This document shows, piece after piece, positions 34,075-61,433 of a DNA stretch of 64,000 nt. Position 1 is the first letter of the stretch. Each line of letters opens with the position of its first letter. This DNA comes from Candidatus Latescibacterota bacterium (GTDB lineage: Bacteria > Latescibacterota > UBA2968 > UBA8231). The translations under genes and the position numbers were made by a program. The stretch spans positions 4,096,001 through 4,160,000 of the forward strand of contig OZ244561.1 in assembly GCA_965217585.1 (NCBI GenBank). The letters run 5' to 3'. The notes under the pieces were generated by a model, which saw only the letters and a program-made list of their open reading frames with translations, ran no database searches and was not told the origin of the DNA.

Positions 34075-34433
34075 TGGTGGAGGCGGCGGGAATCGAACCC
34101 GCGTCCGAGACCGGTTCTACCTAAATATACTACGTGCGTAGTCGGCCTTAGTTATCTCGCCTGTTGCGCTGCCGGCCGACGGGCCTCGCAACGAGCCAGC
34201 CCGAAAAATCTCGTCCCATTCCCTCGGGCGAAGGTTTGGGACCAGCCTGCTAAGAGATGTCATCGGGGCCTGCCGCGCAGGCTCAACAGACCCCAATGGG
34301 CTGCGCTAAATTTAGGCAGCCAGAGCGTACGTGTTAGTTTCGTCGCTTAATTGTTTCCCGAGGATTTACGAGGTGTCGGGACCTCGGCACGCAATTTGGG
34401 CTTCTCCGACCCCGTCGAAGCCAAGTCGCCCCC
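34075..34433 (-). ncRNA. ssrA: tmRNA; tag peptide (A)DETNTYALAA
   Basis: 5' GGGGGCGACTTGGCTTCGAC; 3' GACGCGGGTTCGATTCCCGCCGCCTCCACCA. Tag ORF GAC GAA ACT AAC ACG TAC GCT CTG GCT GCC TAA at 34344-34312. Confidence 0.96.
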
Positions 34434-59062: not shown

Positions 59063-60055
59063 ATGGACAAGATTCGCGTGGGATTTATCGGCTGTGGTGG
59101 AAATGCCAGCGGGCACCTAGGGCGGATGCTCGGCATCCCCGAGGCCCAAGTGGTGGCTTTGTGCGATGTGGATCAGGCCAGTCTGCAGCGGGCCAAGGAG
59201 CGCAACCCGCAGGCCGCGGAGTTGCCGGAGTTTACCCACTACCAAGAGATGCTGGAGCAAGTCGAACTGGACGCGGTAGAAATTTCCACGCCACACACAT
59301 TGCACTTCGAGCAGATTATGACCGCGCTGGACAAAGGGCTGCACGTGCTGACCGAAAAGCCGATGGTCTGTACTGTCGATCACGCGCGCCAAGTTATCGC
59401 CAAAGCAGAGGCGACCGGCAAGGTCCTGATGATCTCCTATCAACGGCACTTGGGGGCGCAGTACCGCTATGTGCGCAATCAGATCGCGGCCGGGGAATTG
59501 GGGGATATCCAGTTTATAGCGGCGCTCCAAGACCAGAAGTGGTATCGGGGGACGATTGGACTGTGGCGGCAGCAAATGGCGCTGTCGGGCGGCGGACAGC
59601 TCAACGACTCGGGAAGCCACCTACTGGACATCGTGTTGTGGATGACCGGGCTGGAGGTGGCAGAGGTGCAGGCCTACATGGAGCATTTCGACTCCGAGGT
59701 GGACATCAACTCGGCGCTGTCACTGCGCTTTGGCAACGGTGCGCTGGGGACGATTGCGGTGGTGGGCAACTCGCCGACCAGCGGGATGTGGGAGGACATC
59801 ACCATCTGGGGAACCAAGGCGGTGGTCTATATCCGCCAAGGACAGGTCTTTTACAAGACGCAGCACAGCAGCGAGGTGTATCAGGTAAATAACTTGCCCG
59901 GCTCGGCGACGCCCGACCAGAATTTCATCGACGCGATTCTCGGTCGCGATCAAGTGCAGGTGCCCCCCGAATGCGGTTTGCGGGTCATTGAGCTGACCGA
60001 AGCGGCATGGGCTTCGGCCGCCAGCGGGCAGCCGGTCAAAGTCGAGCGGCAATAG
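59063..60055 (+). CDS. Gfo/Idh/MocA oxidoreductase
   Basis: GFIGCGG, TPHTLH, EKPM, GGGQLNDSGSHLLD. Confidence 0.9.
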   Translation: MDKIRVGFIGCGGNASGHLGRMLGIPEAQVVALCDVDQASLQRAKERNPQAAELPEFTHYQEMLEQVELDAVEISTPHTLHFEQIMTALDKGLHVLTEKPMVCTVDHARQVIAKAEATGKVLMISYQRHLGAQYRYVRNQIAAGELGDIQFIAALQDQKWYRGTIGLWRQQMALSGGGQLNDSGSHLLDIVLWMTGLEVAEVQAYMEHFDSEVDINSALSLRFGNGALGTIAVVGNSPTSGMWEDITIWGTKAVVYIRQGQVFYKTQHSSEVYQVNNLPGSATPDQNFIDAILGRDQVQVPPECGLRVIELTEAAWASAASGQPVKVERQ

Positions 60056-60059
60056 ACGA

Positions 60060-60088
60060 TTGACCCGGTTCACTAGCTCCTGTATATT
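60060..60088 (+). promoter_or_regulatory. sigma70 promoter
   Basis: TTGACC-17 nt-TATATT with TG directly before the -10. Confidence 0.7.
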
Positions 60089-60094
60089 AAAAAT

Positions 60095-60396
60095 TGAGTC
60101 GAGTTCGGGGGCCACAAACCTCTGTTACCGCCACGCTGAGGCTCGAGGCTACGCGAGCGAGCCAACCCGACTTTGTCATTGGCCGCAACGACGCGCAGAG
60201 TTGGAGTATGGATTATGAGGCGCGCACTAGCGAAAGGAGGTGGTTCATTGAGTAGTAATTGTACCGCAGGGAGGTTGATCACTTGATCAACTCCAGGTGA
60301 TTAACTACCTGGTCAGGAGCACAGTCGCCTCGGCGGCATAGCTTCTGAGAGTACAGCCGGGCGCACCCCACCTTAGCGGGTGCGCCCGGTTTTTTT
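60095..60396 (+). ncRNA. Putative structured small RNA or micropeptide mRNA, family not recognised
   Basis: Bounded by a promoter and a terminator; several hairpins; extended SD GAAAGGAGGTGGTTC; only tiny ORFs (60215/60248-60286). Confidence 0.55.
60356..60396 (+). terminator. Strong intrinsic terminator
   Basis: GCCGGGCGCACCC / GGGTGCGCCCGGT followed by a T-run. Confidence 0.9.
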
Positions 60397-60461
60397 ATTT
60401 GTGCTGCACTAGGTTGGTTCCCACACGGTATTTTGCCATATTGTCCGCGAGGAGGCCGTCT

Positions 60462-61433
60462 ATGAAACGCATCGCCAAGCCCGCAGGGGCTTATAACATC
60501 GTGGTAGAAGAAGTCGAGGTTCCGGCTATTGCCCCGACCGAGATTTTGATTCGCGCCGAATGTTCGCTAATCAGCCGAGGCTCGGAGATATGGCGGCGCT
60601 ACGTGCGCGAAGAGGCGATCGATCACCGCGCCATGGGCTACTCGCTGGTAGGCCGGGTCGCGGAGGTCGGCGCGGAAGTCGAAGAGTTCAGAACCGGCGA
60701 TTTGGTCGCGGCTCTCGCGCCGCACGCCGAATACGTGGCGGTCGAAGTCGCAGCCAGCCAGCACAAGCCTGCGGCCGTGCGCCTGCCAGCGGGCCTGTCG
60801 CCCGAGGCGGGCACCTTCTGGCCGCTGGGAACTAGCTCGGTCCTGTGGATGTGGGAGACCGAGGCCGGCCCGGACGATGTCATGGTCATCCAGGGGCAGG
60901 GCTTGGTCGGCAGCGGTTGTATGCAGGCGGCCAAAGCACAGGGCGCGGGGCGCGTCATCGGGATCGATGCCTTGCCCTTGCGCTGTGAACTGGCGCGCGA
61001 GTTAGGGGCCGACGTGGTGGTAGACGCCAGCGCCGGTGACTCTGTCGCACAGGTCTTGGAGCTGACGGACGGGAAGGGTGCCGATATAGTGGTCGAAGCT
61101 GTGGGCGGGCGGGCCGGGGCGCAGGCTTTTGCCGAGGCGCAGGACATGCTCAAGCGCGGCGGCCTCTTGCAGGTGCTGGGCCTATACGAAAACGAACCTC
61201 TGCCGCTCTACTCAGAAAAAATCATGGGCAAGCGCCTCGTGGGCAGCTATCTCGACGCCAGTCGGCGGCCCGCAGGATCGGCACGTACGCTGGAACTGTT
61301 GGCCACGGATCAGATCCAATTCGCCAAGATGATCACCCACCGCTTCCCCTACACCGAAGCGGCAGCAGCCTTCGATCTGCTCTATAACCGATTGGGCGAG
61401 ACGATGGCGGTATTGTTGACGTGGGACAACTGA
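60462..61433 (+). CDS. MDR-superfamily (zinc-binding dehydrogenase-like) oxidoreductase
   Basis: SLISRGSE, GYSLVGRV, GQGLVG, GADIVVEAVG, MITHRF. Confidence 0.85.
   Translation: MKRIAKPAGAYNIVVEEVEVPAIAPTEILIRAECSLISRGSEIWRRYVREEAIDHRAMGYSLVGRVAEVGAEVEEFRTGDLVAALAPHAEYVAVEVAASQHKPAAVRLPAGLSPEAGTFWPLGTSSVLWMWETEAGPDDVMVIQGQGLVGSGCMQAAKAQGAGRVIGIDALPLRCELARELGADVVVDASAGDSVAQVLELTDGKGADIVVEAVGGRAGAQAFAEAQDMLKRGGLLQVLGLYENEPLPLYSEKIMGKRLVGSYLDASRRPAGSARTLELLATDQIQFAKMITHRFPYTEAAAAFDLLYNRLGETMAVLLTWDN

Follow-up and report, generated by a model that had tools for sequence, protein, structure and literature searches.

The locus described here raises the question of what a bacterium does with a short transcription unit that has its own promoter and terminator, that lies between two enzyme genes and that holds no open reading frame (ORF) of normal size. 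It is found in a stretch of 64,000 nucleotides (nt) of a Candidatus Latescibacterota bacterium genome (assembly GCA_965217585.1, contig OZ244561.1, positions 4,096,001 to 4,160,000, forward strand). This whole stretch is called the window, and coordinates are those of the window unless another genome or locus is named. A first-pass annotation had noticed a 15-nt complement to the 3' end of 16S ribosomal RNA (rRNA) at this locus, and had offered three options: a 30S-binding or decoy RNA, a protein sponge displaying GGA motifs, or a strongly translated micropeptide gene. Our analysis retains part of the first and part of the third, but not the sponge.

The locus is real and conserved. The reading that we favour, with moderate confidence, is that it encodes a stand-alone ribosome-docking small messenger RNA (mRNA) of about 300 nt, in which translation would remodel a switch made of Shine-Dalgarno (SD) and anti-SD elements. 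It would belong to the same kind as rreB and rreR, small mRNAs named for 'ribosome-regulated expression' and described in alpha-proteobacteria (Hahn et al. 2016, RNA Biol, PMC5711450). The features on which this reading turns are the following.

60060-60396, + strand: the whole unit, with a promoter, a unit of about 300 nt and a terminator hairpin
60232..60246, + strand: SD1, an extended Shine-Dalgarno sequence, GAAAGGAGGTGGTTC, a 15-nt complement to the 16S 3' tail
60248..60286, + strand: the micro-ORF MSSNCTAGRLIT, with a TTG start, 12 codons and a TGA stop at 60284-60286
60270..60274, + strand: SD2, an internal GGAGG, 9 nt before the stop codon
60274..60285, + strand: strand A, an anti-SD mimic at the 3' end of the micro-ORF, the 5' strand of helix A:B
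60294..60305, + strand: strand B, SD-like (CAGGTGAT...), the 3' strand of helix A:B
60305..60312, + strand: strand C, a second anti-SD-like run (..ACCTGG), which may form with B an alternative hairpin, 60293-60300 / 60305-60312

The 16S gene of the same genome ends in ...GGATCACCTCCTTTCT, and SD1 pairs with the last 15 single-stranded bases of this tail, the final U excepted. All 15 positions pair: the first 11 form contiguous Watson-Crick pairs, and two of the remaining four are G-U, so that the complement read in the first-pass annotation, including its two G-U pairs, matches the genome's own 16S 3' end. Across 52 distinct sequences from the family, AAGGAGGTGGT is invariant and SD1 varies barely, at its last base only; because of this invariance SD1 is not a chance match. 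Most family members carry GAAAGGAGGTGGTCC, with one G-U pair, and the forms found in family f2 carry AGAAAGGAGGTGGTC. In partition-function folds of 27 full-length RNAs, the mean picture is asymmetric, with an unpaired probability of 0.59 in the 5' half of SD1 vs 0.14 in its 3' half. The first-pass annotation had also called this pairing far longer than that of a normal SD. That is correct for its length (15 pairs) but not for its standing in the genome, where a whole-genome scan ranks its predicted duplex energy of -24.7 kcal/mol as 8 of 69 strong anti-SD complements. The locus is special through its conservation rather than through the strength of SD1.

Other anti-SD complements were noted in the same genome. 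Three near-identical sites, GGAGGGGGGTGATCCACTCCGGCGGCA..., at genome positions 2749976 and 2753102 (+ strand) and 2657689 (- strand), are among its strongest and have the look of a gene or element present in several copies. Elsewhere, at G000:C1:1906894 (locus L002, about 1500-1570, + strand), there is a second extended SD, AGAAAGGAGGTGGTT, with ATG AGG TGA after it; this two-codon mini-ORF is followed by a small hairpin and then a T-run, and the whole lies about 120 nt 5' of the gene that starts at L002:1651. The region gave a BLAST match in just 5 of 30 same-genus genomes, and is thus no second conserved copy of the RNA.

The RNA occurs as a single copy in its 7.3-Mb one-contig genome. BLAST found it in 22 of 24 same-genus genomes, once in each and at 80-96% identity, and in these genomes it is far more conserved than the DNA 5' of its promoter. 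A covariance model built from 23 genus sequences (R1) matched 68 of the 75 genomes of the own family, covering 17 of the 18 family genera searched, together with 2/3 genomes of family f3 and 3/22 of family f4; none of 31 genomes of family f2 was matched. Such a search for homologs had been named as a check in the first-pass annotation, and its outcome is positive: the RNA is kept in these 68 genomes and the long SD in all 52 distinct sequences. A core model built from the 52 distinct family sequences (R2) matched 57/63 genomes in family f1, 18/30 in f2, 2/2 in f3 and 3/19 in f4, and none of 36 genomes in ten other families of the phylum. The ten weakest R2 loci were fetched. One is a false match inside a gene, one is a degenerate f1-type copy, and eight have the same gene plan, namely TTGACT-17-TATATT, a short leader, AGAAAGGAGGTGGTC, ATG, 11 codons, TAG, a structured tail of about 250 nt and a terminator. 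Finally, when 185,579 species genomes were scanned for the exact pattern, 74 loci came up, 66 with the full core and 8 outliers. The titles of the 66 name Candidatus Latescibacterota or Latescibacteria in 44 cases and Gemmatimonadetes, Gemmatimonadota or Gemmatimonadaceae in 15, the other 7 being of other or unspecific title.

In five genomes of the family, weak R1 matches (17-28 bits) were seen in addition to a strong copy, at G086:C4:1281794-1281982, G116:C70:7173-7372, G117:C34:16302-16460, G114:C4:22264-22465 and G089:C141:5983-6171. These may be diverged paralogues or chance matches.

Immediately after SD1, an ORF of 9-13 codons is present in 52/52 distinct family sequences, with 12 codons in 40 of them. 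Its start codon is TTG in 38, GTG in 10 and ATG in 4, the first base being variable and the TG after it fixed; it stands 6-7 nt from the GGAGG in 48/52 and 11 nt in 4/52, and in the window one unpaired base (A 60247) separates the SD1 complement from it. The stop codon, TGA in 47, TAA in 3 and TAG in 2, occupies one shared aligned place, and the five TAA or TAG sequences retain it although the helix pair G61-C85 is lost. Genus indels inside the micro-ORF are of 3 nt (-AGT, +GCA), and the same two variants occur in metatranscriptome contigs. Thus the TTG start at 60248 and the stop at 60286, as first annotated, hold, with start, frame and stop kept in all 52. The other start proposed in that annotation, ATG 60215, was discarded. 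This ATG is invariant in 23/23 genus sequences, its surroundings are unconserved in most other genera, it comes without an SD, and in L032 a 1-nt gap puts it out of frame. A re-initiation ORF at a TTG or CTG overlapping the stop, sought by eye, was likewise rejected: its length varies, and the sequences with a TAA or TAG stop have no start there.

These observations bear on whether the frame could be incidental. In that case the locus would be a non-coding regulatory RNA, whose anti-SD-like strands A and C would base-pair with the SD of other mRNAs, or which would bind a protein. Many small RNAs carry C/U-rich seeds, and the exposed or switchable CACCU(G) runs of this RNA resemble them. Moreover, its nucleotides are more conserved than its peptide, and it folds better than shuffled sequences on the + strand (z = -3.77, with 0/100 shuffles as good; z = -1.87 on the - strand). 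Without translation, nevertheless, it is hard to account for the variable first base of the start with its fixed TG, for the three stop types at one place and for the stops that are kept at the cost of a base pair. We consider such a role rather improbable.

The opposite explanation is that of a plain micropeptide gene, in which the 12-residue peptide is functional, the long SD drives expression and the structure stabilises the mRNA. The kept start, frame and stop fit it, and so does conservation of the peptide at the level of subgroups (e.g. MSSCIP[AV]GGATT), of a GTLEV.G[HR] motif in a group of genomes labelled Thermoleophilia that is described below, and of RreB and RreR within their clades (PMC5711450). 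Between genera, however, the peptides diverge widely, as in MSSNCTAGRLIT, MSSCIPAGGATT, MESTGRSIT and MSEMTSGGGCR, and the changes within the genus are non-synonymous (N/K/T, C/R). The residues that are shared derive from the GGAGG, whose reading frame changes from genus to genus; the frame takes up 39 nt, amid about 250 nt of RNA that is conserved and structured; and extended SDs reduced translation in rreB (PMC5711450). The poor conservation of the peptide between genera argues against a peptide-centred function, to which we give only a small chance, and it seems that the reading frame rather than the peptide is under selection.

The ribosome-docking reading draws further on what lies at the other end of the frame. 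A GGAGG-like motif precedes the stop codon in 52/52 distinct family sequences, 9 nt before it in 42 and 10 nt in 10, and in the f2 and f4 forms the GGAGG is 10 nt upstream of the stop in 8/8. Since this SD2 falls in different reading frames by genus (encoding GR, GG or RR), the constraint bears on the nucleotides. With the stop codon in the A site, the distance from SD2 to the P-site codon is 6-7 nt, which equals the spacing between SD1 and the start codon.

The last codons and the stop codon also form strand A, which resembles the 16S tail (GAYCACCUG) and which is paired with strand B. In the 52-sequence alignment, 95.3% of the cells of helix A:B are paired, against 19-50% in controls slid along the alignment, and 4/12 pairs have changed on both sides (47 cells). 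Its covariation is 0.331, vs 0.196 in shuffles (0/500 reach it), and the helix is present in 4/4 full-length minimum free energy structures inspected. In this conserved structure SD2 is located in a stem, outside the loops. Two alternative pairings can be drawn from the same strands: B:C, which may replace A:B and is possible in 92.5% of cells, and strand A with SD1, an 8-bp pairing possible in 98.1% of cells. There is in addition a possible long-range helix between the middle of the micro-ORF and the stretch before the terminator (GTAC/GTAC here), with some compensatory-looking changes by eye, though not in all groups.

Taken together, these elements suggest how the RNA could work. Pairing would be seeded by the single-stranded 5' half of SD1 and would join it to the anti-SD of a free 30S subunit in a duplex of unusual stability, which would dock the 30S on the RNA. 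A ribosome initiating at the TTG would have to unwind helix A:B in order to reach the stop codon, and strand B would thereby be freed to fold onto strand C. At the stop, the anti-SD of the terminating ribosome could re-pair with SD2, and the ribosome would be held. The structure of the RNA, and probably its lifetime, would then report ribosome engagement, so that the act of translation would matter and the peptide would not. Candidate outputs are the sensing of ribosomes or 30S subunits, anti-SD-like seeds acting on other mRNAs, and control of the RNA's own decay.

This proposal gains from the comparison with rreB of Bradyrhizobium, a stand-alone mRNA of 165 nt in which 17 nt are complementary to the 16S 3' end and a short ORF of 14 codons begins with GTG (PMC5711450). 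It binds 30S subunits strongly and co-sediments with them, is weakly translated and is stabilised on removal of its start codon; its extended SD is predicted to be single-stranded 5' and paired 3' (PMC5711450). In rreR the short ORF has 18 codons, and the paper reports rre analogues solely in alpha-proteobacteria, with function unknown (PMC5711450). The peptides RreB and RreR are each conserved in their clade, yet they have no mutual similarity, so that the rre 'family' is a kind and not a clade (PMC5711450). Our literature searches found no rre-type RNA outside alpha-proteobacteria, and a search on small RNAs of Latescibacter had no paper with that name among its 15 best matches. In these searches the paper on rreB was cited by three later ones, all from the same laboratory.

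The Latescibacterota RNA shares with rreB and rreR, as far as these are described, a small transcript that stands alone between a promoter and a terminator of its own and that is conserved within a lineage though not in its gene neighbourhood, the SD extended on both sides into a 16S complement (15-17 nt; 15-16 nt in our sequences), and the mostly non-ATG start of a very short ORF (14-18 codons there, 9-13 here). The predicted single-stranded 5' and paired 3' parts of the extended SD of rreB recur as the pattern of our 27 folds. It differs in belonging to another phylum, in sharing no sequence beyond the SD, and in its length of about 250-320 nt vs 165 nt for rreB. Furthermore, its complement contains one or two G-U pairs and ends short of the start codon, whereas the rre kind is marked by perfect complementarity over at least 16-17 nt. 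A 3' end of the short ORF that is an anti-SD mimic in a covarying helix sets it apart from rreB as the published text presents it. SD2, at 9-10 nt before the stop in 52/52 sequences here, is found in 2/5 Rhodobacteraceae-type loci, a small sample; these five loci have the SD alone in common with this RNA. With R1, the rreR-like locus L161 was not matched even at E-values up to 1, and a BLAST search for rreR relatives in the family of G209, with matches in 6/61 genomes, is too insensitive for so short an RNA. Binding to the 30S was demonstrated for rreB, and for this RNA it is predicted.

Two claims of the first-pass annotation are to be amended in the light of this comparison. One of its options was a strongly translated gene; the signature of translation is there, but its strength is not implied, the rreB analogue being weakly translated. 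It had also been called uncharacterised, which is true of this lineage, with no Rfam family at threshold, but the kind is already in print. What is new is the phylum and the SD2 and anti-SD-mimic hallmarks; what was already known is the functionally unexplained rre kind.

The other parts of the locus and its neighbours are as follows.

60060..60088, + strand: sigma-70-type promoter, with TTGACC at 60060-60065, a 17-nt spacer and TATATT at 60083-60088
60095..60231, + strand: structured 5' domain of the RNA, with a predicted start near 60095 deduced from the position of the -10 hexamer
60313..60348, + strand: variable 3' hairpin (TCAGGAGC ... GCTTCTGA), RNAalifold columns 226-233 / 257-264
60357..60396, + strand: intrinsic terminator, with a 12-bp G+C stem (60357-60368 / 60378-60389), a 9-nt loop and T7
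59063-60055: Gfo/Idh/MocA oxidoreductase gene, the upstream neighbour
60462-61433: Zn-dependent dehydrogenase gene, the downstream neighbour, co-oriented in this genus

A complete transcription unit had been proposed in the first-pass annotation, and both of its ends were found. The promoter has 10/12 consensus matches and is the sole promoter-like site in 59500-61000, where shuffles average 0.5. TTGAC and the -10 hexamer are retained in 23/23 genus sequences, while the DNA further upstream differs between subgroups, and a match to TTGAC-N17-20-YANWWT lies 111-166 nt 5' of the long SD in 30/52 distinct family sequences. At the other end, the RNA folds at 60357-60389 into a G+C hairpin of 12-13 bp, and T7 comes directly after it, at 60390-60396. 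A simple terminator scan found none, because its loop limit was 8 nt and this loop has 9 nt. All 43 complete sequences in the model alignment end with a G+C-rich hairpin, mostly with a T-run after it and with weak T-runs in a few.

The 5' domain is kept across the genus and in genus g16, and in most other genera what precedes the long SD shows no conservation. For the 5' stem that had been drawn between 60097-60105 and 60164-60172, there is weak support within the genus, with 89.3% of cells paired, 2/9 pairs changed on both sides and 4/500 shuffles scoring as high. The variable 3' hairpin has one pair changed on both sides (three sequences, RNAalifold), and its length and sequence vary by genus. 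A hairpin of GGAGGTTGATCA with TGATCAACTCC, also drawn in the first-pass annotation, is possible in the genus but shows no family-wide covariation (0.113 vs 0.109, reached by 166/500 shuffles). Longer ORFs over the 5' domain (52 and 53 amino acids on the + strand, 69 on the - strand) were rejected, being broken by 1-nt indels within the genus.

Evidence of transcription comes from public records, in which 17 RNA runs hold the RNA; four of them, from four studies, were mapped to the locus. Run X5 gave a contig of 271 nt (60104-60371), run X16 one of 255 nt (60108-60361), and run X4 contig pieces from 60102 to 60382. These short contigs, from RNA libraries of three studies, are wholly or almost wholly within the unit, in agreement with the transcript check named in the first-pass annotation. 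Their starts, at 60102, 60104 and 60108, fit the predicted start near 60095, and neither the X5 nor the X16 contig has a loose end at its termini, a weak hint of a discrete transcript. The flanking genes are uncovered in X4 and appear as short low-depth pieces in X5 and X16, which was not counted as evidence. The RNA is probably expressed.

Its place 5' of a co-oriented gene raises the possibility of a cis-acting leader or attenuator, which would control the Zn-dependent dehydrogenase gene through a leader peptide and the terminator. A short frame within alternative hairpins, followed by an intrinsic terminator, is indeed what trpL and rnTrpL attenuator leaders look like, in which translation would select the structure, and a contig from the fourth run, X1, spans both the RNA and the gene. 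Unlike trpL and rnTrpL, the RNA has no consistently linked downstream gene and no run of regulatory codons, and its alternative strands are SD and anti-SD mimics in place of ordinary attenuator stems. Gene neighbours vary between genera, and in several of 16 listed loci the first ORF 3' of the RNA is encoded on the other strand, so that the RNA is not the leader of one particular gene; clustering of the neighbouring ORFs was noisy owing to spurious high-GC ORFs. The putative promoter of the dehydrogenase gene, described next, would also speak against a leader, and we regard this explanation as very improbable.

From the terminator to the dehydrogenase gene runs a spacer, 60397-60461, that most genomes of the genus have conserved (GGTTGGTTCCCAC..TTTTTGCCATATTGTCCG). 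It contains a promoter-like TGCCATATT, and in our own interpretation would be the putative promoter region of that gene. On the other side of the locus, a methionyl-tRNA synthetase gene is found further upstream than the oxidoreductase gene.

Could the RNA instead belong to a class that is already catalogued? At gathering thresholds, Rfam gave nothing at the locus and, in the whole window, transfer-messenger RNA (tmRNA) only, on the - strand at 34075-34433. A permissive scan of 59950-60520 gave 8 matches, all sub-threshold. The best were Xoo2, which lies on the terminator, with 23.6 bits (gathering 45), and CC2171, with 22.0 bits (gathering 75). The consensus of CC2171 (RF01867), a Caulobacter small RNA, begins with GAAAGGAGGUGAUCC and then GUG, and the weak alignment is anchored there; beyond this stretch the model does not fit, and our RNA is a non-member. 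In our view Hahn et al. probably had CC2171 in mind when they mentioned an rre example from Caulobacterales.

The absence of signal recognition particle (SRP) RNA, RNase P and 6S signatures, as first annotated, was upheld, and RNase P, SRP RNA and tmRNA are encoded elsewhere in the genome. The model for 6S RNA (RF00013) had no match in the whole genome, and it detects 6S in just 5/14 control genomes; the 6S RNA of this genome may be divergent or missing. A 6S RNA typically folds into a rod, its ends paired and its centre opened into a bubble. The locus was considered as a candidate 6S RNA and rejected: it has no RF00013 match, and its multi-branched fold, the 3' end of which is the intrinsic terminator, does not fit. 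As for the tmRNA gene in the window, it is of the one-piece type and complete (RF00023, 197.5 bits, 374/374 model positions matched).

There remains the sponge of the CsrA/RsmE type, which would titrate its protein by displaying GGA motifs. An RNA of the CsrB/RsmZ type calls for a CsrA partner in the genome and for numerous conserved GGA motifs placed in hairpin loops. Several GGA-containing motifs are present, in SD1, in SD2 and in a CAGGAG that had been listed in the first-pass annotation. The last is unconserved, most genus members having CAGAAG, and SD2 is in a stem. CsrA (PF02599) had no match in the one-contig genome, in a search that matched 3/14 control genomes. We find this explanation scarcely credible.

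Several observations weigh against the ribosome-docking reading itself. Two ordinary-looking sites in the genome have 14 contiguous Watson-Crick pairs with the 16S tail, vs 11 in SD1; together with the rank of SD1, this means that strength alone gives it no distinction. The 3' half of SD1, moreover, has different predicted partners in different sequences. The B:C hairpin is without covariation in the family alignment (0.108 vs 0.110 in shuffles), and the pairing of strand A with SD1 cannot show any because SD1 barely varies, so that the case for a switch is one of pairing potential alone. Docking, unwinding and re-pairing with SD2 are steps that we infer from the arrangement of the elements. 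Overexpression of rreB in Bradyrhizobium caused no growth phenotype, which makes simple ribosome titration unlikely as a function (PMC5711450). The X1 contig, of 2195 nt, covers the region from end to end, possibly by read-through or by carry-over of DNA. Finally, related genomes are not independent, and the sequence counts given above overstate the support.

A similar arrangement was met outside the family. One of the outliers of the pattern scan is a metagenome-assembled genome labelled Thermoleophilia (L169 / L200, G168:C14:231190-231450, - strand; relatives L202-L212). Its plan comprises GAGAAAGGAGGTGGTCC, TTG, a 14-codon short ORF, GGAGGTG 11 nt before TAG, CCAGG...CCTGG hairpins and a terminator. 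The element is present in 37/41 relatives (36/40 without the unpublished G177), and the short ORF with its SD2 spacing was found in 12/12 of the loci read. The peptide, M..M/L..GTLEV.G[HR], is different from the Latescibacterota one and better conserved. R1 does not detect this element, and an extended-SD small mRNA of the Thermoleophilia-labelled group was not found in print in our literature searches. The two forms may reflect common descent or convergence.

What the finding means can be stated at two levels. Among natural transcripts, the rre-type small mRNAs are so far the only ones for which pairing with practically all of the single-stranded 16S tail has been reported, and what they do has been an open question since 2016. 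The same plan now occurs in an entire Latescibacterota family together with sister families of it, as well as in the Thermoleophilia-labelled group. The labels of these two groups are those of unrelated, largely uncultured phyla, and the plan is therefore not an alpha-proteobacterial curiosity. By record titles the three phyla are the alpha-proteobacteria, Latescibacterota and the Thermoleophilia-labelled group. As a wider and tentative proposal, which we think possible but doubtful, extended-SD small mRNAs would form a widespread ribosome-docking class (at least three phyla by titles), and the two-pad design of the Latescibacterota and Thermoleophilia-labelled RNAs, which has not been described so far, would be a counter or trap for one ribosome. 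SD1 would capture a 30S at the start, and SD2, 9-11 nt before the stop, would re-capture the same 16S tail. Between these pads the anti-SD mimic would stay locked in a helix opened only by a translating ribosome. The supply of free intact 30S subunits, that is anti-SD integrity or ribosome capacity, would in this way be read out as RNA structure or decay.

At the level of the locus, an SD2 at a fixed distance from the stop and an in-frame anti-SD mimic in a covarying helix offer handles for experiments on the capture, holding and release of ribosomes. The RNA also provides genome annotation with a single-copy RNA gene that is absent from Rfam, and it could serve as a model for very long SD duplexes in initiation and termination.

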